Shown: positions 1 through 52,468 of the stretch, one piece after another | Numbering within the stretch: the stretch's first letter is position 1 | How the letters are laid out: each line of letters opens with the position of its first letter | Assembly: GCF_963676685.1 (NCBI RefSeq) | Contig: NC_092346.1 | Span: 30,566,001-30,630,000 of the forward strand | Direction of reading: 5' to 3' | Length of the DNA stretch: 64,000 nt | From: Mytilus edulis | Taxonomy: Eukaryota | Translations under genes and position numbers: made by a program | The notes under the pieces: generated by a model | The model's input: the letters and a program-made list of their open reading frames with translations, nothing else | Database searches by the model: none | What the model was told of the DNA's origin: nothing

Positions 1-644
1 ATCCTTATCTTTTAATCTAGATTAGTGCTCCTCATTGTTTTGTTCCTTTTTTTATCCCGATAAGAGTTAACCATTGCTAATTATAATCTATTTGTTTTCG
101 GATTAGAGAACCGAGTATTAACCCTTTTAATCCTGATTAGGATAAACAAATGCTAATTATAATATATGTGTTTTCGGATTAGAGAAACGACTCTTAATTT
201 ATATCCTAGATTAGAGGAATCCCTTTTGATAATTAACCAGTTGTTTCCAGACAATCAAAATCCAATTGTTTTCGAACTTAATTAGCGGATCCTTTGTTTG
301 AATAAAGGGAATTAATTGTAACGGAAGGAGAGACAGGCTATTTTTTTATTTTTACAGGAAATACTCTACACAACAGATTGCAAGAGAGAAGAAATATTAA
401 CAAACCGCTAACTGTATTTTCTAACAAACTAGTTGAGATAAGGATATTTAAAAAAATGAAAAAAGTTTTTCTTTCTTTCTCTTTGTAAATTCTTGATATT
501 ATTTTCTTTCTTTTCTCAATTAGTTTGTTTAAAAATAAACACCTCGTTGTCTCATCTATATATAGTTTCTTTTAACACAAAATAATAACACATTTCATGT
601 ATTAATCATTTATTTAAAATATTCTAGATTGTATTTGTTTTTTT

Positions 645-1334
645 TTAGTTAAAACATTTAAATTGTAACCATTTTTTTCTCTTCTTTTTTATTGTAAATA
701 TACTGTTTATGTCTCGTTGCACATACATTTTCTTTTGGGTTTCCAAATTAGTTTCTGTCTTTTTTGTCTTTTTATTCCGTTGGATGTATTCATTGTCACT
801 ATCTTCACTGTATTCATCTGTTTCTTCTTTCTCCTTATTTTCTTCTTTTGTTTTCTTTTCTTTATAAGAGGTAGACTCGAATCGTACTTTGTTTGTTTTT
901 TCGACATTCCTAAACAAACGAAGTGGAATGTTAGTAGACTTCAGAAATTGGTAGAATTGATGTATACCAGCTGTTAGTTTTCTACGACCAATTGGAACTG
1001 TTGAATCACGTATCAAGTCAACGATATGAGTGTTTGAAATATCTTTTCCGTCAATGCAAACTTCACCTTGTTCGTCCCACTTAATAGATGGTTGTTTTTG
1101 TAAGTAAAGCAAAAGTCGCCGGGCTTTGTCTTTATATCTAGATGGAATAGTGATATTGATTAACGATTGTAAATCATCATGTAACGGTTTCTGGTCATAA
1201 GAAAGATTGTGTTGGTTATTGTCTCGAGGTGGAGTGTCATTTAACACCACTTCCGCTTTCGGTTGATCTTCGTTTTGCTTTTGTAAGACAGCCTCGAATT
1301 TATGTTTAGGAATAAGAATCATTTCCTTCGTCAT
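645..1334 (-). CDS. Polinton PZ-like conserved protein, intact copy (229 aa)
   Basis: Motifs MILIP, P-x-x-YKDKARRLL, IKWDEQGEV-x-IDG, HIVDL and F-x-QFLKSTNIP resemble the Polinton PZ family. Lies downstream of ATPase and PW. Confidence 0.7.
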   Translation of the reverse strand: MTKEMILIPKHKFEAVLQKQNEDQPKAEVVLNDTPPRDNNQHNLSYDQKPLHDDLQSLINITIPSRYKDKARRLLLYLQKQPSIKWDEQGEVCIDGKDISNTHIVDLIRDSTVPIGRRKLTAGIHQFYQFLKSTNIPLRLFRNVEKTNKVRFESTSYKEKKTKEENKEKEETDEYSEDSDNEYIQRNKKTKKTETNLETQKKMYVQRDINSIFTIKKKRKKWLQFKCFN

Positions 1335-1610
1335 TTTAAGTGAGCAAGCACAATCTTTACTACTATAGGAATGAGATTTGATCGATACTTTAAAAGAAGT
1401 CTCTTTCGATGTAAACGTTGGGTGTCCTCGGCAGTGATTTTACGAATAACCGTTTTGTACTCCGTATTGTATAACCGTGTTGTATATACATTCTAGTAGG
1501 ATCTTAAATTGTTCGTTATTCATCGTTTTTATCATTGCGAGTCTTTGTTGATCCTCAGCGGAAGCCAATAAGGATAGAAAATTAACGTGTCTAATCACTT
1601 GCTTACTCAT
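1331..1610 (-). pseudogene. Polinton PW-like gene, frameshifted left copy
   Basis: Inverted copy of 9036..9350 in which 50 bp are replaced by 15 bp of filler (280 vs 315 bp). Confidence 0.85.
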
Positions 1611-1623
1611 AGTTTTTTAAGTA

Positions 1624-2292
1624 TTATTTCGGAAGAAAAACCATACAGTTCTCTCCAATGAATATATTTGTTCTAAGTAAATAAAGTTTGTCTGTGTGAG
1701 CGCTCAAATCAATCGTCAAGTATCCGTATTTTTTTTTGGTGGCGAGTTCGTAGGCCGACATGAAATATTTCACCTGACCTGGTAAAATTTGTTTAGCAAG
1801 TACTGTTAACTGGTGTTGATCACGATGATTTTTCAGACAAATAATGTAAGATGCATTCAGGGAAATGGTGCGCATGAATTTACCCGGAGAATGATATAAA
1901 TTCTGAGTAAGCATTAAAAGACTTATGTTTTGATGATGAGATTTTACCGTAAATAAATTTAAAACTTCCACATCATTCACTGCTGTTGCGAGCAAATCGT
2001 CTAAAACCAGAAGCATAATATGTTCCCTTTTTTCTGACCATGCATCCACTTGATCACTGCTTGGTAAACCTTCATAAAAAGTAATATTGTTTATTTCTTT
2101 TTCCATACTTGTGAATAATTCTTGATAAACAGAATAGCAATATACAATTTTTACAGGAGGGGTTGAAAACATACCTCCAGCTTGTTTAATTATGCGAAAA
2201 GTCAACATAGTCTTTCCACTTTGTGTCGGTCCCACAATTAAAATAGAACATGGTGCTTGGAAAGGTAAAAGCGTACGATCTCCACTCGACAT
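1624..2292 (-). CDS. A32/FtsK-like DNA packaging ATPase (222 aa from ATG 2292)
   Basis: Walker A GPTQSGKT, Walker B LLVLDD, and SHHQNISLLMLTQN, RTISLNASYI and YGYLTIDL motifs typical of Polinton ATPases. Confidence 0.92.
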   Translation of the reverse strand: MSSGDRTLLPFQAPCSILIVGPTQSGKTMLTFRIIKQAGGMFSTPPVKIVYCYSVYQELFTSMEKEINNITFYEGLPSSDQVDAWSEKREHIMLLVLDDLLATAVNDVEVLNLFTVKSHHQNISLLMLTQNLYHSPGKFMRTISLNASYIICLKNHRDQHQLTVLAKQILPGQVKYFMSAYELATKKKYGYLTIDLSAHTDKLYLLRTNIFIGENCMVFLPK

Positions 2293-2326
2293 GGTCTGAG
2301 TTTTTTCAGTTTTTTTTCCCACAAAT

Positions 2327-2358
2327 GACTGAAATAAAGTTTAAGTTCGAGTTTTATA
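2327..2358 (-). promoter_or_regulatory. Putative TATA box and Inr of the ATPase gene
   Basis: Minus-strand TATAAAA (2352-2358) lies ~27 nt upstream of TCAGTC. The catataaaactcgaac context is also kept in the diverged right-arm copy (~8831). Confidence 0.45.
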
Positions 2359-2727
2359 TGTTTGATACATAAGTATTTTTTGTTGATTTTTCTTTTTACA
2401 TGTATTTAGCTCCTTTTTTGTATTTTGGTATGTTTTTTTTACGTGTTTGGCATCGGTGTTCCTTTTTGACGTGTTAAGCTTCCGTTCTCAACCAACAATG
2501 CAAAAACTGTTAAAAATCATTTGACCACAGAATATTGAAAACCAACACTGAAAACCAAATCGTGAAAGAAAAGCTTCAGTTCTACCAACAAATATCAAAA
2601 AGAAAACAAGTTAAGAAATATTTATTGAACGCACAAAATTTCAAACATGAATACAAGAATATAAATAATAAATTAAATTACATACAATGTACAATATATG
2701 AAGAAATTTAAAAAAAAAATAAAAATG

Positions 2728-3117
2728 TCATATTAAGTTTTCACGTGATTTGATTCTTTTTTCCATTAAACGGTAAACATTGTCTTTTATTGTTTGACTA
2801 CGTAGTCTGTCCAATACGATCACGTTAAGTAGGAAGTAATTGCACACAAATTCTGAAGACATGTTCAGTTTTTTTACGTCTTCTCTGAATTTAATCAACA
2901 CATCTAAAAGTAAAAACGAACGACATGCTGTTTCAAAATGTCTTTCCAAGTGCTCCTGCTCGCTTTTCATCAAACATTCGTGGTTATGTTGACTGGGGTG
3001 TTCAACTTGGCAACCAGAACACGTTTCTTTCGTTTTCTTTGTAATCAATTCCTGTAACACCTCGGCAAAAGAATAGATCAAGACTGTAGTTAGAAGCTTC
3101 TTCTCCATGCCCGACAT
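2728..3117 (-). CDS. Polinton accessory protein with C-x2-C...HPSQ-x2-H-x-C putative Zn-binding motif
   Basis: CSGCQVEHPSQHNHECLM. First ATG at 3117, co-oriented with the ATPase. Confidence 0.6.
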   Translation of the reverse strand: MSGMEKKLLTTVLIYSFAEVLQELITKKTKETCSGCQVEHPSQHNHECLMKSEQEHLERHFETACRSFLLLDVLIKFREDVKKLNMSSEFVCNYFLLNVIVLDRLRSQTIKDNVYRLMEKRIKSRENLI

Positions 3118-3144
3118 GGCGATTGTTCTCAAAACAAATGAAGT

Positions 3145-3417
3145 TTAGTGATCTTCAATAAAAGAATGTAGAAACACTATACTCTCTTTCAGATTACACA
3201 ATTTTAGCCACACGTCTCTGTTGATTTTGATTTTTTTACCCTTTACAACGATATGAATGAATGTCTTTTGCTGTAGTCGTCTTCCTGTTTTCTTAATAAT
3301 TACTTTAGTCTCGTCGTCAATGGTAAACACATCTTCTCTCTTCAATAAATTTGTGTCGAGGTGTTCGTAATCACATTTGGTTGCTTCTCTCACCAAATAA
3401 ATTTGACACTGAGTCAT
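3145..3417 (-). CDS. Small Polinton accessory protein (90 aa), possibly PC4-like
   Basis: ATG-started ORF with upstream TATA-like sequence in the accessory cluster. The beta-strands-then-helix pattern is only suggestive of PC4. Confidence 0.45.
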   Translation of the reverse strand: MTQCQIYLVREATKCDYEHLDTNLLKREDVFTIDDETKVIIKKTGRRLQQKTFIHIVVKGKKIKINRDVWLKLCNLKESIVFLHSFIEDH

Positions 3418-3514
3418 GATGACTGTGGTGTTTTTATATACAGTGATTTAAATACAGGTATATTCATGCGTAGGGTCATACCATATTCGTGCATGCATAG
3501 CCATGTTTTTTTAA

Positions 3515-3791
3515 TTAAACTTTTCGGATGGATGGATTTGGTAAAATATATCCAGTACACCCACTCAATAAACTAATCCATAATTCAGTGTTTCCATTTT
3601 GCATTGTTATATCATGGAAGTATTATATTGATATATAATACTTCCATGGTTATATTAACAAGTGATGCTATAACAATTGTTATTACAATAATTATTTGAC
3701 AGAAATACACGATTTCTGCTTTGGGAATATTTTCTCCCATGAAGCGCCAAGTCGTTTGTGTGCTCTCCGTATTACTTCTTGTCTCTTCCAT
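3515..3791 (-). pseudogene. Small two-TM Polinton membrane protein gene disrupted by a 43-bp insertion
   Basis: Removing 3613-3655 restores MEETRSN...EIVYFCQIIIVITIVIASLVNITM-QNGNTELWISLLSGCTGYILPNPSIRKV*. Confidence 0.75.
3613..3648. mobile_element. 36-bp DNA-transposon excision footprint, P-element-like
   Basis: catggaagtattatat + tgat + atataatacttccatg (perfect 16-bp inverted repeats), flanked by the 7-bp direct repeat gttatat (3606-3612 and 3649-3655). Confidence 0.75.
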
Positions 3792-3879
3792 GTTGGTAAG
3801 TATAATAAAGGAACCACGTCGCTTATCACTCATACCTTTAAATACGTTTTAAAAAAAGTCAATTTTTTTTCTCTTTCAA

Positions 3880-4065
3880 TTAATTATAGGTAAAGAACAC
3901 ATTGGAAAGAAGATCCTTCTTCCACTGTTCAATTTGCTTCTTTTCCTCACACAAATGATATAGTTTAATCAATGTTTGTTTTTTTAACTTACAAAGATAT
4001 ATATACATTCTCCCTTTTCGCTCCTCGGACACGAAAGCGTTATAAATCATCTCTATCTCATTCAT
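3880..4065 (-). CDS. Hypothetical small Polinton protein (61 aa)
   Basis: ATG-started ORF co-oriented with the accessory cluster; no recognised motif. Confidence 0.3.
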   Translation of the reverse strand: MNEIEMIYNAFVSEERKGRMYIYLCKLKKQTLIKLYHLCEEKKQIEQWKKDLLSNVFFTYN

Positions 4066-5194
4066 TATTTGTATTAAATGGAAATTATGAAAAAAGTCTT
4101 AAAAGAGGGGCTAAAGATACAAGAATGACAATCAAATTCATAAATTGAAAAAAAAAATATCTGACAACATCGAGGATAAAAAAGACGAAAAGACAACGTT
4201 TGTTAAGCGTACAGTGACGAATATTACATACATATTCATTGGCACATGATTTACTAGAATACAGTTTCGCACCTCACGTGTATAAAACGTACAGTGACAA
4301 ATATAACATATGGCACATACATATTCATCGGTATCATTAACGTTTGTTAAAATTACAGTGACAAATATTACATATTGAACATACATATTCATTGGTAAAT
4401 GATTAACTAGTATGAACTAAAAAAAAAACCTTATTATTAAAAAAACACCCAATCATTTTAATTAAATCAAACAACAACAAGCATACCAACAAATTATACA
4501 CTCTTTTATAAATTGAGTGGTCTTTAATTTAAATGGACCTTACGCAGTTGTGTAAATCTTTTCTTCATTTCTAAGCGGTGTGTAAATATAAGTGCGTTAA
4601 AATCACGACTGTAAAAAAAATATTAGATATAAATTATTCGTGGTCTTCATAGAAGAATAAAACATTTGTGCTATGTTACCCAATCTCCATGTTCCAACTG
4701 GACAATTTGATTGATGATCTTAAATATCTTTTCATACTTTTCTCGCTAGACAAAGTCAGAAAATGTTTTTTTACTTTCTTTTCCTGTTTCTATTTTGTTT
4801 ACTATTTTTTATTTATTTAGTGTGTGTCTGCATTTAATATATATTTTTTTTATCTTGTTTTATATTTGTTTTGAAAATAAAAATGTACATATTCTCAACT
4901 TGTTATAGTTTAGAAGAAGAAAATTAATACAAGCATTAAAAAACTCTCCAACTCTAACTAGTAGTTTGTTTTTTGTTAAATAATAATAACAAGTGTTTAT
5001 TGGTGATACTCTAGTGGAATAAAGACATTGAGACGTAAACATACATGCATAGTGATCAAAGGTACACACTTATTTATTATGGTAAAATGAGGACGGTAAA
5101 TAGAATTTTATTGTACATTTTCACTGGTTTTAAAATTCTCATTTTTATGTATATTTCTCAAGAGTTTGTTTGGATATAAGTTCAGTATAACACG

Positions 5195-6316
5195 ATGGAT
5201 GAAGAAGTGAACAATCTTTTGACACCAATTTATTACAATATAGGAAATCCGAGTTCTTTTTCCTCAGCTAGCAAACTTTATCACATTGTTAATGCGGATG
5301 GGAAAAAAATTGGTTACCACAAGATAAAGAGATGGTTAAATGCACAAGACAATTATTCCTTACAAAAAACTCCCAGGCGTTCTTTTAGAAGATTACGTGT
5401 GTATACAACAGGAATTGGTAACTTAATGGACGTCGACCTAATGCAAGTAAGTAATTTATCACAATGGAACTCTGGATATAATTTTATACTAGTTGCCATC
5501 GATTGCTTTAGTCGACGTCTTTGGATGCAACCATCAAAGAGTAAAAAAGGTGTTGACATAGCCAAAGCTTTTGAAAAAATTCTGCAAACAGCAAAGGTAG
5601 ACAAGATCCGCTCGGACGTTGATGGATGTTTCAAGTCAAAGGTTGTTCAAAAACTTTTCAAGGAAAGAGGAGTGCGACATTTTGTAACTAAGAACGAGAT
5701 AAAAGCAAACTATGCTAAGCGTGTGATACAAACCATAAAAAATAAATTTTATCGTTACTTTACTAAAAAGAGAACGTATCGGTACATTGACAATTTACAA
5801 AAATTTGTAAAGAGCTACAATGCAACACCACACAGGTCCCTAAACTATATTGCACCCAACGACGTTACACCGGAAAACGAAGCGGATGTATGGGTTCAAC
5901 AATACTTGAATAAAAAGAAATCTCCTGATAAGACGAGTCGACCAAATACCAAAAACCCACAAAAACTTAAAACCGAAGCAGATTTGAAGAGAAAAAGAAA
6001 ATTGCAACGGCGGAAGAGTTACAAATTTAAAATCGGTTCTCTTGTTAGAATCTTCAAAGTTGTACGGAGATTGAAAAAACAGAGCATCAAGATTTATAAA
6101 TTGAGCTCTTTTTATAACGATGAGGAAATTTCTGGTGAATATTATTCTACTGAACTTCAGGCTGTTGATAAATCAGATGAATCCCTCTGGGTTGTAGAGA
6201 AAGTTCTGAAAAAGCGTAAAAGGCGAGGAAAGACCGAGTTTTTATGTAAGTTTCAAGGTTGGCCTGATAAGTATAACCAATACATTCCCGAGGAAGACAT
6301 TCAAACATTATCATGA
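5195..6316 (+). CDS. Polinton rve-type integrase with C-terminal chromodomain, probably catalytically dead
   Basis: MDVDL...LVAIDCFSR, IRSD, KANYAKRVIQTIK (normally AER), YNATPHRSL, and chromodomain VEKVLKKRKRRGKTEFLCKFQGWPDKYNQYIPEEDI. Confidence 0.9.
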   Translation: MDEEVNNLLTPIYYNIGNPSSFSSASKLYHIVNADGKKIGYHKIKRWLNAQDNYSLQKTPRRSFRRLRVYTTGIGNLMDVDLMQVSNLSQWNSGYNFILVAIDCFSRRLWMQPSKSKKGVDIAKAFEKILQTAKVDKIRSDVDGCFKSKVVQKLFKERGVRHFVTKNEIKANYAKRVIQTIKNKFYRYFTKKRTYRYIDNLQKFVKSYNATPHRSLNYIAPNDVTPENEADVWVQQYLNKKKSPDKTSRPNTKNPQKLKTEADLKRKRKLQRRKSYKFKIGSLVRIFKVVRRLKKQSIKIYKLSSFYNDEEISGEYYSTELQAVDKSDESLWVVEKVLKKRKRRGKTEFLCKFQGWPDKYNQYIPEEDIQTLS

Positions 6317-6774
6317 CAAACGACGATATTGACGAGGATCACATTATTTTCTTATTCAACGATCAATCAAATAAGTATTATCCTGAAAATATACCTTCAA
6401 ATTTTAAGGTTCACCTAAGTGACACATTGTATTTAGAAGGAAAGTGGGAAATAGCTGTTTTGGATTTTTATTCCAAGGAGAAAATTTCAACTGTTAAAAA
6501 AACTAAACACGAACTATACATTTTTTGTGACGTATGTATGGGTGTAAGTCTGTTTCACAATGAGTTTTCACTTTTACGACGTGTATTTCCTACACCAAAT
6601 AATACTTGGAATTACGTTTTTTCTAACCCTATTTTCGTACCTGTGAAAAAAACTGAAATCCGCGACTTAGAAATACATATTTTCGACGAAAGTGGAGAAC
6701 AAGCGTCATTTTTAAATCAACGTTTGTCCTGTACACTACATATTAGAAAAAGAAAGGGGAAGTATCAACGATGA
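6313..6774 (+). CDS. Minor capsid protein (penton, single jelly-roll)
   Basis: YYPENIPSNFKVHL...LEGKWEIAV, LYIFCDVC, LLRRV, FSNPIFVPV, IHIFDESG and CTLHIRK motifs. Position between integrase and MCP fits. Confidence 0.85.
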   Translation: MTNDDIDEDHIIFLFNDQSNKYYPENIPSNFKVHLSDTLYLEGKWEIAVLDFYSKEKISTVKKTKHELYIFCDVCMGVSLFHNEFSLLRRVFPTPNNTWNYVFSNPIFVPVKKTEIRDLEIHIFDESGEQASFLNQRLSCTLHIRKRKGKYQR

Positions 6775-7129
6775 ATGCAGACAAAATGTACATTCCAAGC
6801 ATGGAGAAGTGGTCGAAATATTATCAAAATGTTGTGCAGGGGAATAATAAAACGTATATAACGCACAAATACCGGACGTAATGGGTCTTTTATGATACCT
6901 ATTGAGAATCAAAAATCGCCGTCAACCTCGTCGAAATCTAATGAAAAGTACAATATTCATCTAGTTAGTCCAAGTGCGCAAATGGTCGGAGTCTTTAGAA
7001 GATGAGGGTTTGCATATAAAAGGAAAAAAACGTAAACGAAAGACCAGTCATAAGGCAACCAGCAGTGGAGTTGGCGTATGCAAAAAGAAAAGAGAACCAA
7101 AACGAGACGTTTTTTTTCAGAGTACATGA
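6771..7129 (+). pseudogene. Basic core-like (PM-like) protein gene with two frameshifts
   Basis: Three fragments in different frames: MNADKMYIPSMEKWSKYYQN / FMIPIE...IHLVSPSAQMV / IKGKKRKRK...KKKREPKRDVFFQST*. Sits between penton and MCP. Confidence 0.55.
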
Positions 7130-7136
7130 ATTAAAA

Positions 7137-8453
7137 ATGGCTTTACTAACATCACAGAACAACTTCACAGAAGCTATTCCTTCACAATTAGAAGTTTTCG
7201 AGATACCTCCATACCAGTTAGGAGTTGAGTCAATTTCGTATGAAGAATGTCGGCCTACATCACAAGTAACAGCCTACAACCCAATAGAATTTAATTTGTG
7301 TGCCCAGAACGGACTAGAATACATCGATCTCAGACGGTCGAAACTGTATGTTAAGTTGCGTGTAAAACATAGCAATGGAGACAATATTGCTATAGATTCA
7401 AAGGTGGCACCAGTAAATGAATTTTTCTATGCACTTTTTTCTCAAGTCGACTGTTACCTACAAGGTTCACTGGTATCATCAAGTAATACCAACTACTCGT
7501 ACAAATGCATGATGAAAACGCTACTCGATTATGGACAAGATGCAAAAGCATCACAACTAACGAGTGCGTTGTTTTATAAGGACAGAAGTGGACACATGGA
7601 CTCATTTGATACTAACACGGGTCTTTACGAAAGGAAAAAACTGATAGGTAATTCTAAGAGCCTTGATATGGAAGGAATGTTGTTTCACGATCTTTTTGAA
7701 ATGGATCGTTACTTATTAAATATGGTTGACGTAAAATTGAAACTTTTCAGAAGTAGACCGAGTTTCTGTCTAATGTCAAGCGAAGACGATGCGGACTATG
7801 ATGTTGTCATTGAAGATATTGTCGTTAAAGTGTGTAAAATTAAGGTCAATCCAGCTTTCATTTTTGCTCATTCGGAAGCATTGAAATCAACGAATGCTAA
7901 ATATCCCTATACAAAAACAGTAATGAAACATATTACTCTTATGATGGGTAGTACGTATGCAGTGTTGGAGAACATTTTCCAAGACGTGAAACCAAAACGA
8001 ATCATCATGGGTCTAACTTCGACAAACGCCGTGAACGGTGATTATCAACTTAATCCGTGGAATTTTCAACATTTTGACTTGCAACAAATAACTTTGTACT
8101 GTGATGGAGTTCCTGTAGATGGAATTCCTCTGAAACTACAATTCAACGAAGACAGGGGTGCAACAAATGTTGCAGCATACGTTAAAATGTTTGAAAACTG
8201 TGGAAAGTGGGGCGGAGATGCGGGGAATGAAATAACTAGATCGGACTTCAACAATGGATATGCTTTATTCTGTTTTGATTTACAACCTCACTTTTCAGAT
8301 GCCAACTATCTGTCACTGGTAAAGCAAGGAAAAGTAAGACTTGAATGTCATTTTGCATCACCCTTACCAGAAACTGTCTCTTTACTCATTGTAGCCGAAA
8401 ACTCTGGCTATTTTGAAATAACGGAAAATCGTCAGATCAAAGTAGAACACTAA
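7137..8453 (+). CDS. Major capsid protein (hexon-like double jelly-roll, PY), 438 aa from ATG 7137
   Basis: PSQLEVF-x2-PPYQ, PIEF, YIDLRRSKLYVK, FSQVD, YSYK-x4-TLLDYG, LFHDLF-x-MDRYLLN, AKYPY, NPWNFQHF, GYALFCFDL and G-x-VRLE motifs. Frame is intact. Confidence 0.92.
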   Translation: MALLTSQNNFTEAIPSQLEVFEIPPYQLGVESISYEECRPTSQVTAYNPIEFNLCAQNGLEYIDLRRSKLYVKLRVKHSNGDNIAIDSKVAPVNEFFYALFSQVDCYLQGSLVSSSNTNYSYKCMMKTLLDYGQDAKASQLTSALFYKDRSGHMDSFDTNTGLYERKKLIGNSKSLDMEGMLFHDLFEMDRYLLNMVDVKLKLFRSRPSFCLMSSEDDADYDVVIEDIVVKVCKIKVNPAFIFAHSEALKSTNAKYPYTKTVMKHITLMMGSTYAVLENIFQDVKPKRIIMGLTSTNAVNGDYQLNPWNFQHFDLQQITLYCDGVPVDGIPLKLQFNEDRGATNVAAYVKMFENCGKWGGDAGNEITRSDFNNGYALFCFDLQPHFSDANYLSLVKQGKVRLECHFASPLPETVSLLIVAENSGYFEITENRQIKVEH

Positions 8454-8892
8454 GTTCATACCTAATACTGTTTGTTGTATTTTGTCCTATTTAGATTATG
8501 TTATGACACAACCACATTATATGACATTTCTTTTTCTGTGTTTAATATTTCTATTTGTCTAATAAATATTCAAATATAATTCTTTTACTTGTTTTTTTTC
8601 TTCCTGTTCGTCTTTTAAAATGTCTTCGCTATAGAACTGATGCATTGATTTAAGTTTTTTTTTACATTGCTGCTGGTCATTTACCTGCTTTCAGGTAATT
8701 TATTAAGTTTGAAAACCAATTTGGAAATTTTGTGCAAGAGTGGTAAACATTCATTTAATTAAATGTTTTTCATCAAAACTTAAACACAACCAAAAACAAA
8801 CCAAATAAAAAAATATACGTTTGTATCAAACATATAAAACTCGAACTAAAACTTTGATTTCAACGATATGTGAAAAAAGAAGAACTCAAACC

Positions 8893-9022
8893 ATGTCAAA
8901 GGGGGGTCATTCACTTTTACCTTTCCAAACACCTTGATTAGAGTGCTCACACAGACAAACTTTATTTACTTAGAACAAATATATTCATTGGAGAGAACTG
9001 TGTGGTTTTTCTTCCGAAATAA
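8893..9022 (+). pseudogene. Internally deleted second copy of the packaging ATPase gene
   Basis: MSKGGHSLLPFQT... joins directly at 8933/8934 to the 3' end (SAHTDKLYLLRTNIFIGENCVVFLPK*). About 540 bp are missing relative to 1624..2292. Confidence 0.85.
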
Positions 9023-9035
9023 TACTTAAAAAGCT

Positions 9036-9350
9036 ATGAGTAAGCAAGTGATTAGACACGTTAATTTTCTATCCTTATTGGCTTCTGCTGAGGATCAGCA
9101 AAGACTCGCATTGATAAAAACGATGAATAACGAACAATTTAAGATCCTACTAGAATGTATATACAACATTTTACATGGAGTCGTTACACTATCTCCGCTA
9201 AATAAAAAGAAACTGTTTGAGTACAAAACGGTGATTCGCAAAATCACTGCCGAGGACACCCAACGCTTACATCGAAAGAGACTTCTTTTAAAGTATCGAT
9301 CAAATCTCATTCCTATAGTAGTAAAGATTGTGCTTGCTCACTTAAAATGA
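9036..9350 (+). CDS. Polinton PW-like basic protein, intact copy (104 aa)
   Basis: FLSLL...QRLALIKT...LECIYNILHGVVTLS...KKKL...IRKI pattern typical of the PW family. Lies between ATPase and PZ. Confidence 0.7.
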   Translation: MSKQVIRHVNFLSLLASAEDQQRLALIKTMNNEQFKILLECIYNILHGVVTLSPLNKKKLFEYKTVIRKITAEDTQRLHRKRLLLKYRSNLIPIVVKIVLAHLK

Positions 9351-10039
9351 CGAAGGAAATGATTCTTATTCCTAAACATAAATTCGAGGCTGTCTTTCAA
9401 AAACAAAACGAAGATCAATCGAAAGCGGAAGTGGTGTTACATGACACTCCACCTCGAGACAATGACCAACACAATCTGTCATATGACCAGAAACCGTTAC
9501 ATGATGATTTACGATCGTTAATCAATATCACTTTTCCATCTAGATATAAAGACAAAGCCTTGCGACTTTTGCTTTACTTACAAAAACAACCATCTATTAA
9601 GTGGGACGAACAAGGTGAAGTTTGCATTGACGGAAAAGTTATTTCAAACACTCATATCGTTGACTTGATACGTGATTCAACAGTTCCAATTGGTCGTAGA
9701 AAACTAACAGCTGGTATACATCAATTCTACCAATTTCTGAAGTCTACTAACATTCCACTTCGTTTGTTTAGGAATGTAGAAAAAAACAAACAAAGTACGA
9801 TTCGAGTCTACCTCTTATAAAGAAAAGAAAACAGAAGAAGAAAATAAGGAGAAAGAAGAAACAGATGAATACAGTGAAGATAGTGACAATGAATACATCC
9901 AACAAAATAAAAAGACAAAAAAGACAGAAACTAATTTGGAAACCAAAAAGAAAATGTATGCGCAACGAGACATAAACAGTATATTCACAATTAAAAAGAA
10001 GAGAAAAAAAAATGGTTACAATTTAAATGTTTTAACTAA
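9347..10039 (+). pseudogene. PZ-like gene, frameshifted right copy
   Basis: +1 A in the run near 9781 truncates the ORF at 9820. A further +2 A near 10005 (693 vs 690 bp). Confidence 0.75.
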
Positions 10040-10619
10040 AAAACAAATACAATCTTGAATATTTTAAATAAATGATTAATAAATGAAATGTGTTATTATT
10101 TTGTGTTTAAAGAAACTATATATAAATGAGACAACGAGGTGTTTTATTTTTAAACAAACTAATTGAGAAAAGAGAGAAAATAATTTACAAAGAGAAAGAA
10201 AGAAAAACTTTTTTCATTTTTAACTATCCTTATCTCAACTAGTTTGTAAGAAAATAAAGTTAGCGGTTTGTTAATATTTCTTCTCTCTTGGATTCTGTTG
10301 TGTAGAGTATTTCCTGTAAAAATAAAAATAGCCTGTCTCTCCTTCCGTTACAATTAATTCCCTTTATTCAAACAAAGGATCCGCTAATTAAGTTCGAAAA
10401 CAATTGGATTTTGATTGTCTGGAAACAACTGGTTAATTATCAAAAGGGATTCCTCTAATCTAGGATATAAATTAAGAGTCGTTTCTCTAATCCGAAAACA
10501 AATATATTATAATTAGCATTTGTTTATCCTAATCAGGATTAAAAGGGTTAATACTCGGTTCTCTAATCCGAAAACAAATAGATTATAATTAGCAATTGTT
10601 AACTCTTATCGGGATAAAA

Positions 10620-10909
10620 AAGGAACAAAACATTGAGGAGCACTAATCTAGATTAAAAGATAAGGATTATCTTAATCCGATTGATTGCACAATGATGTGC
10701 TTAAAGGAACAAAAACATTGAGGAGCACTAATCTAGATTAAAAGATAAGGATTATCTTTATCCGATTGATTGCATAATAAGCTGCTTAAAGTTGCATCAT
10801 AAGCTGCTTTAAATCGTACCATAAGCTGGCTTAAGAAGATTAGAGGGGATTATAAGCTGGCTTAAGAAGATTAGAGGGGATTACAGGCTCCGTACTTGAG
10901 ATTACGGAG
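10620..10909. repeat. Polinton subterminal tandem repeats and hairpin
   Basis: ~85-bp unit x2, 31-bp unit ataagctggcttaagaagattagaggggatt x2, and stem-loop ctccgta-8nt-tacggag at 10888-10909. Confidence 0.75.
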
Positions 10910-11817
10910 GGCAGTCTCATAACACACTATTATTGTCATCTGATAAAGTCATGCCGTTTATAAGATGTACAGTTTCCTCTTCAAAATCTTTCTGTTTGCA
11001 CCCGTCGACCTCGGGAACTTATCAATTATTGTTAATATTAGTTATTTGGAAAACAAAAGGGCCTGCAATGGAGTATTTTTTAATCAACAGCATTGTCTTG
11101 TATTAGTTATAAATAAAGTTGAATTCTTTGATTCAATGTTTTATGTAAAGTTAAATATTTTGATTTGTCGTTTTTACCCCATGACGGCTGACAAATTGGA
11201 CCTCGTTATTTTAGTATTATAGAAGCAACAGGTCAACTTTATTTGTTGTATGGAATTTGAAGAATTGCTAGCTGTACATGTCTGCTTGGCATGGTTCATC
11301 TGACCTTGACCTTATTTTCATCGTTCATTGGCAAATGTTTAGTTTTCTTTGTAAGTTTATTTGACAGTTGTAATAAAGCTTTACGTTTAGGACTATCAAC
11401 ATAATATCAATGATAATAAAAGAAGGCGAGACTTTTCAGCGTGTGTACTCTTGCTGATGAAGTTGAAGTTCATTCAACTTGAAACTTAGTACACATGTTC
11501 CTTATGATATGATCTTTCTAATTTTAATGCCAAATTAGACTTTTGACCCGAGTTTCTTGGTCAACTGAACATAGAAAATGATAGTGTGAGTTTCAGGTTA
11601 AAGTTTTTGGTCAAGGTATTTCTTTATGAAGTTGGAGTCCAATCAACTTGTTGTTACATAGATTTTATACAATTTTTAGCATTTTTATGAATGAAAAGAA
11701 TATCTTAATGGACCTAATTCTATTTTGAATAGTGGTATGTATCGTCTTTTAGATGGTTCATTGGTCAACGTTAAATTCTTGCGATCTTGTTTCTGGGTTG
11801 TCAATATATAAAGAAAA

Positions 11818-17385: not shown

Positions 17386-18279
17386 GTATCACCAGCCCAA
17401 TGGTCAGCACTCGTGTGTTGAAATGAAATATCATTAGTGCTGTCATTTACTTTTCGTAAAGTGTAAAACCTTTCCGAAACAATAAGCCTTGTATACCTTT
17501 ACCCACAAATAACCATAGCCAGACATCATATTGGAATTTTTACCTTTCAATGTAACCCTACTTTGGGATATTTTTGGCCTTCGAACAATGATGAGTCTTA
17601 TGTAGACGTAACGCACGCGTGGTTTACCAAATTATACGTTCGGTATCTTTAATGAAGTTTATTAAATAGAAATATGCTCTAAAGGTCATACGAGCCCCAT
17701 TTTACCGAAACATATGTATGTTGAGATATGTATAACAACAACAACGAACTGAAAGGTAAATTCAAAAAGGGGGAAGCCTATTAAAAATGAAAAAAACAAA
17801 TCAATACAAGAGTTTAATATTACCAACTATCGCAGGTATGGAAAAAAGCTTTCATACTCCTGATTTCCCGCAAAAAAATGTGTCGTTAACCTGATGTAAG
17901 GCTACCAAATCTCCCATTTGAATGTCAGTTGTCAATAGTTATGCTATATTGACAAAATTATATATGCAAATCATACAGACATAATTTTACGATATTTGTC
18001 ACTATTTGAACCCCGTGAGTTTAATCTAAATCTTTATCTTCAGTTGCATTGGCACCTGTTCGTCTATGAATTTTTTTTATTTTGGAGCATACTTGCAACT
18101 ATTTATCACGTTATTTTAAGTTGTTTAGCCATTTACTTAAATAATAAAAAAATATTTTACAGTTTTTCAGCTGATACAACCACAAACTGACTTTCGAAGT
18201 TCGCTTCTTTTTGTTACTTGATTGGGTTGTAGAATCATTGACAGAAGCACATCCTTATGAATCGCGGAACGTTTCTGCA

Positions 18280-19578
18280 TTCAGTTACTTTCCAAAGCTA
18301 TAGACGATTATCAACAAGAATCGTGCTTTCAGTTACATTCGAAAGCAATAGACGATTATCAACAAGAATCGTGCTTTCAGTTTCTTTCCAAAGCTATAGA
18401 CGATTATCAACAAGAACCGTGCTTTCAGTTACTTTCCAAAGCTATAGACGATTATCAAAAATAATCGTGCTTTCAGTTACTTTCCAAAGCTATAAACGAT
18501 TATCAAAAAGAATCGTGCTTTCGGTTACTTTCCAAAGCTATAGACGATTATCAACAAGAATCGTGCTTTCGGTTACTTTCCAAAGCTTTAGACGATTATC
18601 AACAAGAATCGTGCTTTCAGTTACTTTCCAAAGCTATAGACGATTATCTTATCAACAAGAATCATGCTTTCAGTTACATTCGAAAGCAATAGACGATTAT
18701 CAACAAGAATCGTGCTTTCAGTTTCTTTCTAACGCTATAGACGATAATCAACAAGAATCATGCTTTCAGTTACTTTCCAAAGCTATAAACGAGTATCAAA
18801 AAGAATCGTGCTTTCAGTTACTTTCCAAAGCTATAGACGATTATCAACAAGAATCGTGCTTTCGGTTACTTTCCAAAGCTATAGACGACTATCAACAAGA
18901 ATCGTGCTTTCAGTTTCTTTCCAAAGCTATAGACGATTATCAACAAGAATCGTTCTTTCAGGTACATTCGAAAGCAATAGACGATTATCAACAAGAATCG
19001 TGCTTTCAGTTTCTTTCCAAAGCTATAGACGATTATCAACAAGAATCGTGCTTTCAGTTACTTTCCAAAGCTATAAACGATTATCAAAAAGAATCGTGCT
19101 TTCAGTTACTTTCCAAAGCTATAAACGATTATCAAAAAGAATCGTGCTTTCAGTTACTTTCCAAAGCTATAGACGATTATCAACAAGAATCGTGCTTTCG
19201 GTTACTTTCCAAACCTTTAGACGATTATCAACAAGAATCGTGCTTTCAGTTACTTTCCAAAGCTATAGACGATTATCAAAAATAATCGTGCTTTCAGTTA
19301 CTTTCCAAAGCTATAAACGATTATCAAAAAGAATCGTGCTTTCAGTTACTTTCCAACGCTATAGACGATTATCAACAAGAATCATGCTTTCAGTTACTTT
19401 CCAAAGCTATAAACGATTATCAACAAGAATCGTGCTTTCAGTTTCTTTCCAAAGCTATACACGATTATCAACAAGAATCGTGCTTTCAGTTACTTTCCAA
19501 AGCTATAGACGATTATCAACAAGAATCGTACTTTCAGTTTCTTTCCAAAGCTATACACGATTATCAACAAGAATCGTA
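18280..19578. repeat. 48-bp minisatellite, ~27 copies
   Basis: Unit ttcagttactttccaaagctatagacgattatcaacaagaatcgtgct. Explains ORFs 18257..19285 and 18760..19644. Confidence 0.95.
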
Positions 19579-23487: not shown

Positions 23488-24518
23488 TTAGGAACTATTT
23501 CTACAGTCTTTCACACTACATACATTTGGAGGGCACGATTTTTTGGAACATATTTGAGAACACCATTCATCCATTCCATAAATATCTTCAAATGCTCCAA
23601 CGGCGTGGCATTTTGTTTTAGGGACTACAACAACATCATCACATCCACATTCACACATAAACTTGACACAGTGATTGGACCTGCAGTTGTTCAGACACCA
23701 TTGGTCAATGCCTCGAGTATGTGCATATCGACCTTTTGCTTTACACCGGAAATTTGGCGAAGTTGAGTAACATTCTCCATTTTTTGAAGTTAAAGGTTGG
23801 CTAGTTTGTGAAAACAAAGGATACGTTATCGAATCACTTTTACCCGGAAAATAGTAAATATCTGGTTGTGAAGGGACAAATCTAGTTAGAAGAAGATTTC
23901 CAGGCTTTGGTTTTATCAAAATTTTTGGCGTCGTTTTCGCCGCGATTTTTTCCCAAAAAGTTAACTCTTTTGAACTTCTCGATACTGTATTCCAAGTCGT
24001 CGAGGGTGACGATTCTTCAATTCTTTTGTCCCAAAATGATTTTTTCGTTTCTACATTCTTTTTACTTGGAGTAATTTTAAGGGGAAATGTCATGTTAGCT
24101 TGGAATTTGATGTATGGAATTCCCGTCTGCCATGAAGGTTTAATCCAATTCACATGTTCATGTTTCTCTTTGATATTAGATACATCATCATTCGAAACTT
24201 TCTTTGCAATGTCTTTGGTTTGTTGCAATTTGTCATTGTAAGAAGGTTTTGGCTTAGAGCTATCACCTTTGCGGATTTCATAAGCATTGGGACTATTGTA
24301 AACCGGCAAAGTCTGCCGAAAGCGTTCTATATTAGAATCGGTGAGATTTCTATCAGATATTAAAAATAATGGTTTATGTACATTAATTTCCGTGGAAATG
24401 AAAGCTCTATCACTGAATAAGGTATCCGACTGTATTTCGATATCAGCACAATTATAAAATGTTTCCTGCCTACCACAACCCATACACTGACATTCGTTGA
24501 TCCCTCCCATTCTATATC
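23488..24518 (-). CDS. AA15/LPMO-fold (chitin-binding type-4) secreted protein, exon 3
   Basis: tttgtag acceptor, phase 1. CMGCGRQETFYNCADIEI ends the LPMO domain, followed by a low-complexity linker and two Cys-rich modules (C-x-A-x-G...G-x-D-x-WC-x3-C...C). Confidence 0.85.
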
Positions 24519-26033
24519 CTACAAAGTATATAAACAATTATTAATGTGTTAATTGTGTTATTCATGAATCATATATCATTTATGGAATTCTTTTGATTAT
24601 TTTCTTAAAATGACCTTGACCAAGTCAGGAATATGGCAGTTGTTGTCATATATTCTGTCTCTATGTATGTTGCGTTTGTTAGCAGTTCTGTGTTTCTGTT
24701 CTTTTTTTTTTCTTATAATTAATGTGTTAGTTTGTGACACGGATTTGTTTTAGTTAAATCGATTTATGACTATTGAACAGCGGCATTGCCTCTATTTAAA
24801 CATGTAAAAATTCAAATGTCCCTAATCAAATGGCGGAATCAATAAAACACATCAAATGTATGGACAACAACTGTCATATTCGTGACTTGGTACAGGCATT
24901 GAAAAGCACTATATTGAAAACTATGGTACTGACAAACACTTTGCTCTCTGTGTTTATTTCAAACATCGTTGTCAATGTAGCTATAACACCAGGTTTAATC
25001 CACAATTTCTACATAAGAAAATGCCTCTGAACAAAGTCAAGAATATGAAAATTGTAATCCATTCGTTTGATGTGTTTGAGCGTTTGATTTTGCCAGTTGA
25101 TAAAAGATTATCAGTTTGGAATGTTCCTCGAAGTTTTGTTGTTTCTGTTATTTTACTTTTTTATATGATATAATTGAAAAGAAAATTAAATTAGAAACAA
25201 TACATTATCTTACGAAAAAAAAAAAAATTTCAATAGAACCATTTCATAACGATTATCACAAGTACATTTATTCCTTAAGTTCATATATTTTTTCTAGTTT
25301 AAGAATTTCATTAAAAAGCTTAAAGAGATATTGTAGTATTTCTGATCGATTTTCATTTAAAACAAAAAATCACGAGTTTTATGCTAATTCAAAATCGTAC
25401 TAGTTTAAAGATTTGTACAACAATACTGACAAGATTAATAGACTAAAAGTATTACAATTATTGGCGCAGAAAGACAAATATTTCGACTCAACAGTTGACC
25501 TTCATCACTTTAAAGATTTGCTAAATCATTAAATCAGCTACTATTATAGAAATTCAGATTTGAATGAAAAGTGATTTGCTAAATGATTTAATTATCAAAT
25601 AGAATACATATTAATTACACAGGGATACCAGTTTATTAATTCAAGTGCATGTCGTTGCATTTATAAAAATAAAACTTTCATCTAGTTACAGTCACGTATT
25701 GGTTGCTGATTCATGAGACGTAATTTAATTTATGCAAATTATAAGTAAAAAATGTGAACGCCATTTTTTGTTAGTACGATCTGCACAACTATTGTCATAT
25801 TAAACGTCCCAAACCATATGTATAATTATGTAAATCAAACAAATACAAACCGCAAGATAGACAAAAAACTTGTATCAGTCTGTGAATATATTTAAGAAAT
25901 GTGTAACCTTATATCTGAATAGTATGTTAAAAACTCATAATTGTTTTTCTCACTGAAGTCGGGGCTAATCATTGTAAGAGATATTGTTATAGCCCTTAAA
26001 CAAAACAAAAAAAAAACTCATCACAGATACAAG

Positions 26034-38681: not shown

Positions 38682-40468
38682 TTTAGCTCACCTGGCCCAA
38701 GGGCCAAGTGAGCTTTTCTTATCACTTTGCGTCCGTCGTCCGTCGTCCGTCGTCGTTAACTTTTACAAAAATCTTCTCCTCCTAAACTACAGGGCCAAAT
38801 TAAACCAAACTTGGCCACAATCATCATTGGGGTATCTAGTTTAAAAAATGTGTCCGGTGACTCGACCAACTAACCAAGATGGCCGCCATGGCTAAAAATA
38901 GAACATAGGGGTATAATTCAGTTTTTGGCTTATAACTCAAAAACCAAAGCATTTAGAGCAAATCTGACATAAGTAAAATTGTTTATCAGGTCAGCATCTA
39001 TCTGCCCTGAAATTTTCAGATGAATCGGACAACCCGTTGTTAGGTTGCTGCCCCTGAATTTATAATTTTAAGGAAATTTTGCTGTTTTTGGTTATTATCT
39101 TGAATATTATAATAGATAGAGATAAACTGTAAACAGCAATAATGTTCAAAAAAGTAAGATTTACAAATAAGTCAACGTGACCGAAATGGTCAGTTGACCC
39201 CTTTAGGAGTTATTGCCCTTTATAGTCAATTTTTAACCATTTTTCGTAAATCTTAGTTATCTTTTACAAAACTCTTCTCCTCTTAAACTACTGGGCCAAA
39301 TTAATCCAAACTTAGCCACAATCATCTTTAGGGTACCTAGTTTAACAAATGTGTCCGATGACCCGGCCATCAAATCAAGATGGCCACCACGGCTAAAAAT
39401 AGAACATAGGGGTAAAATGCAGTTTTTGGCCTATAACTCAAAAACCAAAGCATTTAGAGCAAATCTGACATGAGTAAAATTGTTTATAAGGTCAAGATCT
39501 ATCTGCCCTCATGTTTTCACATGAATCGAACAACCCGTTGTTGGGTTGCTGCCCCTGAATTGGTAATTTTAAGGAAATTTTGCTGTTTTTGGTTATTATC
39601 TTGAATATTATTATAGATAGAGACAAACTGTAAACAGCAATAATGTACAGAAAAGACAGATTTACAAATAAGTCAACGTGACTGAAATGGTCAGTTGACC
39701 CCTATAGGAGTTATTGCCCTTTATAGTAAATTTTTAACCATTTTTCGTAAATCTTAGTTATCTTTTACAAAATTCTTCTCTTCTGAAACCACTTGGCCAA
39801 ATTCATCCAAACTTAGCCACAATCATCTTTAGGTAATCTAGTTTAAAAAATGTGTCCGGTGACCCGGCCATCAAATCAAGATGGCCGCCACGACTAAAAA
39901 TAGAACATAGGGGTAAAATGCAGTTTTTGGCTTATTACTCAAAAACCAAAGCATTTAGAGCAAATCTGACATGGGGTCAAATTGTTTATCAGGTCAAGAT
40001 CTATCTGCGCAGAAATTTTCAGATGAATCGGACAACCCGTTGTTAGGTTTCTGCCCCTGAATTGGTAATTGTAAGGAAATTTTTCTGTTTTTGGTTATTA
40101 TCTTGAATATTATTATAGATAGAGATAAACTGTAAACAGCAATAATGTTCAGCAAAGTAAGATTTACAAATAAGTCAACATGACCGAAATGGTCAATTGA
40201 CCTCCTAAGGAGTTATTGTCCTTTATAGTCAATTTTTAACAATTTTCATAAAATTTGTAAATTTTTATTAACATTTTCCACTGAAACTACTGGGCCAAGT
40301 TCATTATAGATAGAGATAATTGTAAGCAGCAAGACTGTTTAGTAAAGTAAGATGTACAAACACATTACCATCACCAAAACACAATTTTGTCATGAATCCA
40401 TCTGCTTCCTTTGTTTAATATTCACATAGACCAAGGTGAGCCACACAGGCTCTTTAGAGCCTCTAGTT
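38682..40468 (+). mobile_element. Non-autonomous Helentron/HINE-type element with internal ~501-bp tandem repeats
   Basis: 5' ttagctcacctg...gtgagct, (cgtc)n microsatellite, three ~501-bp units (38761, 39262, 39763) plus a partial unit, 3' aggtgagc and palindrome aggctctttagagcct. Confidence 0.8.
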
Positions 40469-42711: not shown

Positions 42712-43112
42712 TTTAAATTTGCTAGTATCTCAGTTATAAGTTTATTAAAATTTGCTAGCATCTCAGTTATAAGTATATTAAAATTTGCTAGTATCTCAGT
42801 TATAAGTATATTAAAATTTGCTAGCATCTCAGTTATAAGTATATTAAAATTTGCTAGCATCTCAGTTATAAGTATATCAAAATTTGCTAGCATCTCAGTT
42901 ATAAGTATATTGAAATTTGCTAGTATCTCAGTTATAAGTATATTAAAATTTGCTAGCATCTCAGTTATAAGTATATTAAAATTTGCTAGCATCTCAGTTA
43001 TAAGTATATTAAAATTTGCTAGCATCTCAGTTATAAGTATATTAAAATTTGCTAGCATCTCAGTTATAAGTATATTAAAATTTGCTAGTATCTCAGTTAT
43101 AAGTATATCAAA
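42712..43112. repeat. 33-bp minisatellite, ~12 copies
   Basis: Unit ttaaaatttgctagcatctcagttataagtata. Confidence 0.95.
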
Positions 43113-51578: not shown

Positions 51579-52468
51579 CTAAAAAAAATTATGAAATTTA
51601 TAAGATTCTTATTGAGTTTGGCCGTATAAATGCTGTGATTTTATGTTTGTATTGCTTGTCCTTAACTAATAAATGCGTTGTCATCTAATAACATCTATTT
51701 CAATATGTATAAATATAGTTCTTTAAGCCGGAATGTCATAAGCGGTTGATGCTGTGCTTCAAAATAATTCAAAAATATGGACTATCTGTTTTAAACTGTT
51801 GTATCTTTCGCCGTTTAAAATGTTACATTTCCTATTAGTTTTTTGTTTGTTTACTCTTTAAAATAATTTTGATAATAATAAGTTTAATTATCCTTTTAGA
51901 ACTTTACACATAAAGCTCTATCTACTATCTAAAATAAGCATTGAGTTCTGATACCGCGATAATGTCAGTTAGACCATGCGGATTCTTGGCGAGCGAGTCT
52001 GTAAGACTGTAACGCTACAATAGAGATTCAGGGGTAATTCGAGGATAAAAGATACTACAGATTTCTGATTATTTGTATGATTTCTGGAATATCAGATTAA
52101 GATTTGAACTGCAAATGGTTTTTTTTTTAAAGATTTTATCAGAATGTTCAAAATGTTTTTATTTCTAACAGGCCTAGTATTTCCGACAGAAAATATCGGC
52201 TATACATTTTATAATGGACGGCGGCCGGGCGCCCCTTTGCCAAACAGTATCTATGTATTAACTTGAAAATCTTTTCAAATATAAGGGTGTTCTTTCCTGT
52301 GACTTAATCACGGTCAAGTTCAATTTTCGCGATTTTAGCTTTTATCGTTGTTGAGTTGTAGAACTTTAAGATGCAAAAAGTGATAATTAGATTGATTTTA
52401 GCCTTTCCACTTCTGAACCCTGTATCGAATCGTTTATGTGTTTTACTTGATCCTGTTTAAGGGTCCTG

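Follow-up and report, generated by a model that had tools for sequence, protein, structure and literature searches.

The 64,000-nucleotide stretch of Mytilus edulis contig NC_092346.1 analysed here (the window, whose first base is G000:C3:30566001) opens inside a Polinton that lacks the polymerase pPolB. This element, the window copy, belongs to a polymerase-less family that was mobilised in the mussel genome and whose two gene-bearing 2-kb terminal arms evolve together. The family is probably a long-lived, helper-dependent Polinton subfamily, produced by a copy-back at its left end together with deletions inside its right part.

Structure of the window element

Self-BLAST bore out the inverted copies proposed in a preliminary description of this DNA: positions 1..1712 match 10667..8934 in inverted orientation over 1751 columns with 94.1% identity (gaps included) and 48 substitutions. 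The repeats contain the last 29 codons of the ATPase gene together with open reading frames (ORFs) of 104 and 229 aa, in agreement with the gene-bearing terminal repeats of about 2 kb suggested at the outset. The right terminus lies at 10931, where it had been placed, but the element does not start at position 1, its left terminus being located 657 bases upstream of the window at G000:C3:30565344. The whole element measures 11,588 bp, about 0.4 kb of the left repeat being duplicated, and has AGTAGT-type termini, with one change in the last trinucleotide at the right end of the window copy. Since both flanks read ATTGTC, a 6-bp target-site duplication, the window element is one insertion and not two facing ones with unrelated duplications, the situation that had been named as evidence for two truncated insertions. 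The features of the element, in window coordinates, are the following.

1..1712, minus strand: inner part of the left inverted repeat, which extends 657 bases upstream to the AGTAGT terminus, with ATTGTC before it
645..1334, minus strand: left copy of the 229-aa ORF, PZ-like by position; frame open, no Pfam or Atlas match
1331..1620, minus strand: left copy of the 104-aa ORF, PM-like by position; broken, 35 bp deleted
1624..2292, minus strand: A32-type packaging ATPase, 222 aa (Pox_A32, E 1.7e-5, over the cut-off); its last 29 codons lie inside the repeat
2728..3833, minus strand: accessory block of 129-aa, 90-aa and 91-aa ORFs, the last shortened to 73 aa in the window copy
4344..4720, minus strand: decayed remnant of a 100-aa accessory gene region, the marker of the left junction; 68-69% identical to polymerase-carrying relatives
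5195..6316, plus strand: rve integrase with chromodomain (Pfam; rve E 4e-5, below the curated cut-off, Chromo E 2e-9)
6313..6774, plus strand: 153-aa ORF in the minor-capsid (penton) position, putative by position; 56% identical to a sister family, no Pfam match
6771..7135, plus strand: 125-aa ORF, PW-like by position; frameshifted in the window copy
7137..8453, plus strand: major capsid protein, 438 aa, double jelly-roll (model with a predicted local distance difference test score of 86; Foldseek matches)
8454..8933, plus strand: relic junction, with about 100 bp of post-capsid sequence, then the decayed ATPase upstream region and first codons, then most of the ATPase deleted
8934..10931, plus strand: right inverted repeat of 2.0 kb, with the ATPase 3' end, two ORFs, subterminal short repeats near 10455-10791 and the terminus
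9036..9350, plus strand: right copy of the 104-aa ORF, frame open
9347..10040, plus strand: right copy of the 229-aa ORF, frameshifted, reading 157 aa
10932..10937, plus strand: target-site duplication ATTGTC, matching the left flank

The core of accessory ORFs, integrase and capsid gene described earlier was recovered, with Pfam matches to rve and chromodomain for the integrase and a model of the capsid protein that in Foldseek matches the capsid proteins of PBCV-1, Sputnik and mavirus (E 3e-15 to 2e-11); the closest named homologues of this protein are from Mytilus. The absence of pPolB also holds, no such frame being found inside the element, and the element contains no ORF for an alternative replication protein of the Polinton-like-virus type. 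The switch after the capsid gene to a copy of the ATPase promoter region was likewise recovered, positions 8781-8936 matching, at 76%, the sequence upstream of the ATPase together with its first codons. Compared with the polymerase-carrying relatives, the presumed helpers, the approximately 100 bp of post-capsid sequence in the relic is 68% identical and the ATPase upstream region with first codons 75-76%. The labels PW-like in the repeats and PM-like in the core turned out to be reversed: judged from the vertebrate Maverick gene order, available as atp-pm-pz and int-mcp-pw-Mcp (PMC8097293), the 104-aa ORF would occupy the PM position and the 125-aa ORF the PW position, both names being purely positional. 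Neither the 104-aa nor the 229-aa ORF gave a significant Pfam match, and the latter gave no usable Atlas match, while the 129-aa and 90-aa accessory ORFs share 48-50% identity with the sister family. A 128-aa ORF in the outer repeat was not counted as a gene, its ratio of replacement to silent changes per site (pN/pS) being near or above 1, or silent changes being zero, in 8 of 9 comparisons.

The window copy itself is decaying: three of its ORFs, the 125-aa one and the left 104-aa and right 229-aa copies, contain indels, and its integrase has an in-frame deletion and an unconserved third position of the catalytic triad, which is complete in other copies. The 91-aa accessory ORF carries a 43-bp near-palindromic insertion (window 3605-3650) that is absent from the other copies and matches many unrelated contigs.

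Part of the element stretch is contained in 20 of the 24 listed sequencing runs, which come from 11 studies. In the run X1 a contig of 4204 bp spans 4839-8970 and crosses the junction; X4 and X5 likewise have coverage of the relic. These three are DNA runs of three studies with three organism labels, and one of them could be the source of the assembly. The listed contigs of X4 and X5 stop at the capsid stop codon, and among the listed pieces none bridges the inner repeat boundary under a 31-letter rule. The X1 contig depths of 87.6 and 106.4 against 192.9 fit two repeat copies per element; they are not copy numbers and were not used for helper frequency. In another six runs, of RNA or possibly RNA, a fraction of 0.32-0.52 of the sequence words occurs, which was not counted as evidence of expression.

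Mobility, arm co-evolution and selection in the polymerase-less family

A search of the mussel's own genome with positions 7100-9400 gave 52 matches, and 40 of 46 candidates were scored; all own-genome counts are lower bounds. In at least seven dispersed loci (the window copy, C12a, C8a, C7a, C8b, C9a and C10a), none with a pPolB frame inside, the capsid gene is followed by the relic junction. The junction at window 8860-9000 was matched end to end at 93-98% in all six other copies and in none of three polymerase-carrying relatives. Because the copies share this junction yet five of the seven have perfect, distinct 6-bp target-site duplications, the polymerase-less family was mobilised, as anticipated when a satellite family with one junction and different duplications was first proposed. 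Arm-to-arm mismatch, a rough measure of age available for six copies, is 0.20% in C12a, 0.30% in C10a, 0.89% in C8a, 1.96% in C7a, 2.20% in the window copy and 2.38% in C8b. The relic segments are 96% identical among the recent copies and 68-76% identical to the helpers.

Just past its capsid stop codon C10a holds a 4.8-kb insertion with short inverted ends (G000:C10:4859476-4864276), likely a DNA transposon. This insertion was considered as the missing polymerase and rejected as separate and unrelated. The flanks of the C10a element are inverted satellite-like repeats.

The two 2-kb arms of the family evolve together. Comparison of 12 arms from six copies (C9a was excluded for its truncated arms) yielded 79 informative columns, of which 48 are strictly paired within elements, 14 are paired except mainly for one window arm, 13 are mixed and four are side-specific, three of these lying within 30 bp of the inner boundary; arms evolving independently are expected to give mostly side-specific columns. 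Since alleles are common to all four arms of two separate insertions, in C7a with C10a and in C12a with C8a, the homogenisation of the arms happened before insertion.

The arms also bear on the relation to polymerase-carrying genomes. Between C12a and the full-length relative C11a, silent divergence (dS) is 0.16-0.31 in the core genes and 0.13-0.14 in the two accessory genes that C11a retains, and 0.02-0.045 in the ATPase, 104-aa and 229-aa genes. C12a differs from C10a at 18 of 6849 core bases. In the interval 1201-2450, C12a agrees with the polymerase-carrying C3b at 17 of 21 informative sites; past 2450 its agreement is with C10a, at 116 of 121. The C3b-type alleles are carried in both C12a arms. 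As read from these alleles, recombination of the arms with polymerase-carrying genomes is shown for one copy, C12a.

Selection was assessed on the integrase, penton-position, 125-aa and capsid genes, a stem change being one that is common to five recent copies at a site where an older copy keeps the C11a allele. Stem changes, spread along the genes, comprise 24 silent and five replacement changes (pN/pS 0.05), private changes in the recent copies 11 silent and 32 replacement changes (pN/pS 0.74; Fisher p 2.6e-6 against the stem). The decayed copy C9a has 14 silent and 55 replacement changes (pN/pS 1.00), and C8b 20 and 27, respectively. As far as substitution patterns tell, this shows the integrase and capsid-block genes to be under purifying selection within the family. 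For the loss of the polymerase, the split among the junction-bearing copies sets a minimum age and the core dS of about 0.2-0.3 a maximum. The idea of a copy-back defective genome thus needs to be divided: a copy-back origin of one arm stands, but a short-lived defective genome does not, since the genes show purifying selection and exchange with polymerase-carrying relatives.

Polymerase-carrying relatives and origin of the family

With the family's polymerase DNA as query, three long near-identical matches and one 85-bp fragment were found, all 17 candidates being scored; the own-genome search found no complete intact copy of the family. C11a is full length, with the integrase, the penton-position gene, the polymerase and the ATPase broken. 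Its order is end, a segment X, integrase block, reversed polymerase, accessory genes, ATPase, 104-aa and 229-aa ORFs, end, and its repeats, about 880 bp long, reach as far as the stop codon of the 229-aa ORF. Parts of this order are retained in C1a, C11b and C11d. In the polymerase-carrying relatives pPolB is internal, between the capsid gene and the accessory-ATPase block, and this block reaches the right end in the same orientation as the right arm of the window copy. C1a is a 10.0-kb insertion (G000:C1:24546889-24556932) with a perfect 6-bp duplication, unequal ends and arms differing at one of 394 bases. It is 98% identical to C11a, and its open 1417-aa polymerase frame, with motifs A, B and C, is the only open full frame of the family; it has neither integrase nor ATPase, and its capsid gene is a fragment of 317 bp. 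Mosaicism was looked for in the 3' end of this fragment and not found, the sequence siding with C11a.

C3b is a 14.3-kb palindrome (G000:C3:61926144-61940409) with a perfect 6-bp duplication, whose 5454-bp arms differ at three bases and each hold the accessory genes, the ATPase and both terminal ORFs. Its centre is a truncated polymerase ending before motif C, and integrase and capsid gene are missing. C3b is the same kind of copy-back as the window element, with a longer copy. Within the family the ends thus form an extension series of about 0.9, 2.0 and 5.5 kb. The X segment of the parental left arm has 46 of its 48 matches on contig C11, at about 14-62 Mb, mostly decayed and including a 1.3-kb tandem array near 36.61 Mb; this cluster is possibly a local amplification or a trap resembling a silencing cluster.

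A sister family, polymerase-carrying and about 65% identical, has repeats of about 400 bp and is represented by C8s (G000:C8:33082472-33096128), C4s (C4:79779617-79792479) and C14s (C14, near 45.23-45.24 Mb). Compared with C11a its gene order is permuted, with the polymerase last, behind the capsid gene. Its repeats have little in common with those of the window family outside the terminal six bases, and a role of the sister family as helper is not supported. An unrelated 9-kb element with 209-bp AGTAGT-ended repeats (G000:C1:35776946-35785998) encodes pPolB (1443-aa frame), a 604-aa protein with zinc finger and A32 ATPase, and an integrase, with no capsid gene seen; this element may also account for several pPolB frames of comparable length in other places.

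The preliminary description had a protease/pPolB arm replaced by the copy of the opposite end. This finds no support in the internal position of pPolB in the relatives or in the lack of a protease ORF, or of any unassigned frame of suitable size, in C11a and in all three sister elements. A tblastn search with the putative protease of another family in the genome gave nothing better than E 0.48 in 10 other regions, a weak control, as the best PDB match of that query is adenain at only E 0.27. A genome search with PF00770 was too insensitive, with one weak match elsewhere and none at the putative protease of the family C6p. The absence of a protease looks like a trait of the lineage, mainly because no suitable unassigned frame is left.

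Measured against the C11a order, the right arm of the window copy has kept its original position and orientation. The left arm, which takes the place of X, repeats the right gene block in inverted form as far as a point within the conserved 100-aa gene. Together with the precedent of C3b, this leads us to infer a left copy-back plus right deletions, the left arm being the likelier copy. The parent would have read end, X, the block of integrase, penton, 125-aa and capsid genes, reversed polymerase, the block of accessory genes, ATPase, 104-aa and 229-aa ORFs, end. The right gene block would have been copied back onto the left end in place of X; the polymerase, internal in that parent, would probably then have been deleted with the redundant right-hand accessory genes and ATPase, leaving the 2-kb gene-bearing repeat. 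Since Polintons, according to the available text, fuse the terminal protein to pPolB (PMC11161782), the terminal protein would be missing as well, and a relative with the same termini would have to supply both in trans, to which the shared ends and the recombinant copy C12a point indirectly. In a published model the displaced strand closes into a panhandle via its repeats (PMC4046053). Here the displaced strand would anneal over 2 kb, one arm acting as template for the correction of its partner; packaging and insertion would then fall to the capsid, ATPase and integrase that the element itself encodes. Homogenisation alone would suffice to keep the duplicate genes.

Several observations weigh against this history. 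C11a, the full-length relative, is a single decayed copy and a permutation of the sister-family order, and other parents are possible. Two of the seven junction-bearing copies are without matching duplications, the flanks of C10a being different and the ends of C9a not located. The arms of the window copy differ by 2.2% and are not homogenised, falling in different clades, the left with C11a and the right not, which suggests a recombinant that was inserted unrepaired or converted later. As to selection, 23 of the 29 stem sites are polarised by a single older copy; the six polarised by both comprise five silent changes and one replacement (p 0.0017), and it is possible that recombination with an unseen closer polymerase-carrying virus mimics the signal. 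In one RNA run 92 reads were placed among 8.7 million (about 6% of the run), with 56 partial fits, and most of the core had no depth. Finally, neither helper activity nor virions nor extrachromosomal forms were observed.

One competing view, which we hold to be unlikely on its own and which can coexist with the favoured origin, is a two-part Polinton, where the polymerase-less genome gives capsid, ATPase and integrase, polymerase-only genomes such as C1a give replication, and the ends are shared. The family's only open full polymerase frame indeed sits on an element with no integrase or ATPase and only a capsid fragment, several genes of full-length C11a are disrupted, a polymerase-less genome should show selection on its capsid genes if the helpers have none, and bidnaviruses are two-segment relatives with conserved ends (PMC4061559). 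Yet C1a and C3b are single, differently built insertions and no recurring segment, the C3b polymerase stops before motif C, the 98% identity of C1a to C11a means that full-length helpers existed recently, and polymerase-plus-repeat loci without integrase are also reported from C. elegans (10.1101/2024.01.15.575659). Equally tentative is the thought of a mussel Polinton caught part-way to a two-segment virus, with ends matched by panhandle repair and recombination and no complete genome.

A little more doubtful is the direction first proposed, in which a parent with a left inverted ATPase block lost its right polymerase arm to the copy-back and the copied ATPase was deleted later. The right junction would look alike under both directions, and the sister family does have its polymerase last, after the capsid gene. 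The order of inverted block followed by integrase occurs, however, in none of four polymerase-type relatives (C11a, C1a, C11b, C11d), the left junction interrupts a 100-aa gene that helper and sister both retain, which is what a derived break would do, and there was no protease to lose. From that history the copy-back origin of one arm is retained; replacement of the right arm would need a parent with an order that none of the relatives examined shows.

That the element is an ordinary non-autonomous deletion derivative, with arms matched by chromosomal gene conversion after insertion and genes conserved by recent origin, appears improbable. Chromosomal conversion between inverted repeats separated by 7 kb is possible. 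Non-autonomous derivatives are a general rule for DNA transposons (PMC6431247). Conversion within one insertion nevertheless cannot produce alleles common to four arms of two insertions; the contrast of 68-76% identity of the relic segments to the helpers with 96% among the recent copies, and the excess of silent changes on the internal branch, also speak against this view. Misassembly of the locus, or a pair of separate truncated insertions in facing orientation, is essentially rejected in spite of the proneness of inverted repeats to misassembly, given the matching 6-bp flanks, seven loci with the same junction, differing arms and the short-read X1 contig from another data set across the junction.

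Other window features and comparison with known systems

Elsewhere the window holds a 1894-aa open frame (45904-51588, minus strand) that consists of tandem repeats of 141-144 bp and has a high content of Gly, His, Asp and Lys; the scanned part has no Pfam match. A 349-aa open frame (23488-24537, minus strand), likewise without Pfam match, has an N-terminal cysteine motif reminiscent of chitin-active monooxygenase exons. Tandem arrays lie at 18276-19577 (period about 48/96 bp), 38755-40304 (about 501 bp) and 42712-43112 (about 33/66 bp).

The mussel element is a Polinton derivative, not an autonomous member. It shares with Polintons/Mavericks (polintoviruses, adintoviruses) the rve integrase, A32 ATPase, double jelly-roll capsid, AGTAGT termini, 6-bp duplication and terminal inverted repeats. 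It differs in that the family has no pPolB and no protease was seen even in its polymerase-carrying relatives. Its 2-kb repeats hold two genes and the ATPase end, in contrast to repeats of 100-1500 bp given elsewhere (10.1101/2023.08.22.554363). Butterfly polintons come closest in part: some have repeats of about 2 kb containing hexon and adenain genes, and those lacking polB stayed mobile beside polB-carrying relatives (10.1101/2025.02.07.637071, the Pannagram preprint, 2026 version). In these, unlike the mussel family, polB loss coincides with long interspersed element (LINE) or long terminal repeat (LTR) cargo, and the available text leaves the question of mobilisation open, with no description of arm homogenisation, helper recombination, selection after polB loss or a polymerase-only counterpart (10.1101/2025.02.07.637071).

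Bidnaviruses such as Bombyx mori bidensovirus resemble the mussel family in a Polinton-derived pPolB, two segments, conserved terminal structure and one segment without polymerase, but are single-stranded, have a parvovirus-type capsid and lead an established bipartite life cycle, whereas two-part behaviour in the mussel is hypothetical (PMC4061559). Polinton-like viruses and Tlr1 also have a capsid module without canonical pPolB, Tlr1 with an rve integrase, but encode another replication protein, which the mussel element lacks (PMC11161782). We found no published account of mussel Polintons without polymerase, of bipartite Polintons, or of the combination of features described here, in a search that excluded most subscription journals and Repbase, and a structure of the mussel type is not described in the available text of 10.1101/2023.10.06.561300, PMC8502044 or 10.1101/2022.07.12.499685.

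Each single feature is already known, and what is added here is their combination and the evidence on process: a durable satellite lineage, arm repair before insertion, recombination with helpers and a complementary polymerase-only element. Repbase may list non-autonomous Polintons. In copy-back defective genomes and in adenovirus panhandle repair, one end is copied onto the other, a helper is needed and the repeats are mutually corrected; unlike such defective genomes, the mussel element is integrated, inherited and long-lived, and its structural genes are under selection.

The replication of animal Polintons is inferred mostly from gene content. Polinton particles have, according to the available text, not been seen so far (PMC8097293). 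In this genome polymerase-less copies outnumber polymerase-carrying ones 7 to 3, and surveys demanding pPolB next to integrase (e.g. PMC8097293) would overlook such families. The purifying selection on capsid genes of a genome that does not replicate itself argues that packaging matters to its spread, and the exchange between polymerase-less and polymerase-carrying genomes implies joint replication. The family thus leaves population-genetic footprints of replication in its mutually corrected ends, its graded end extensions and its exchange with helpers.

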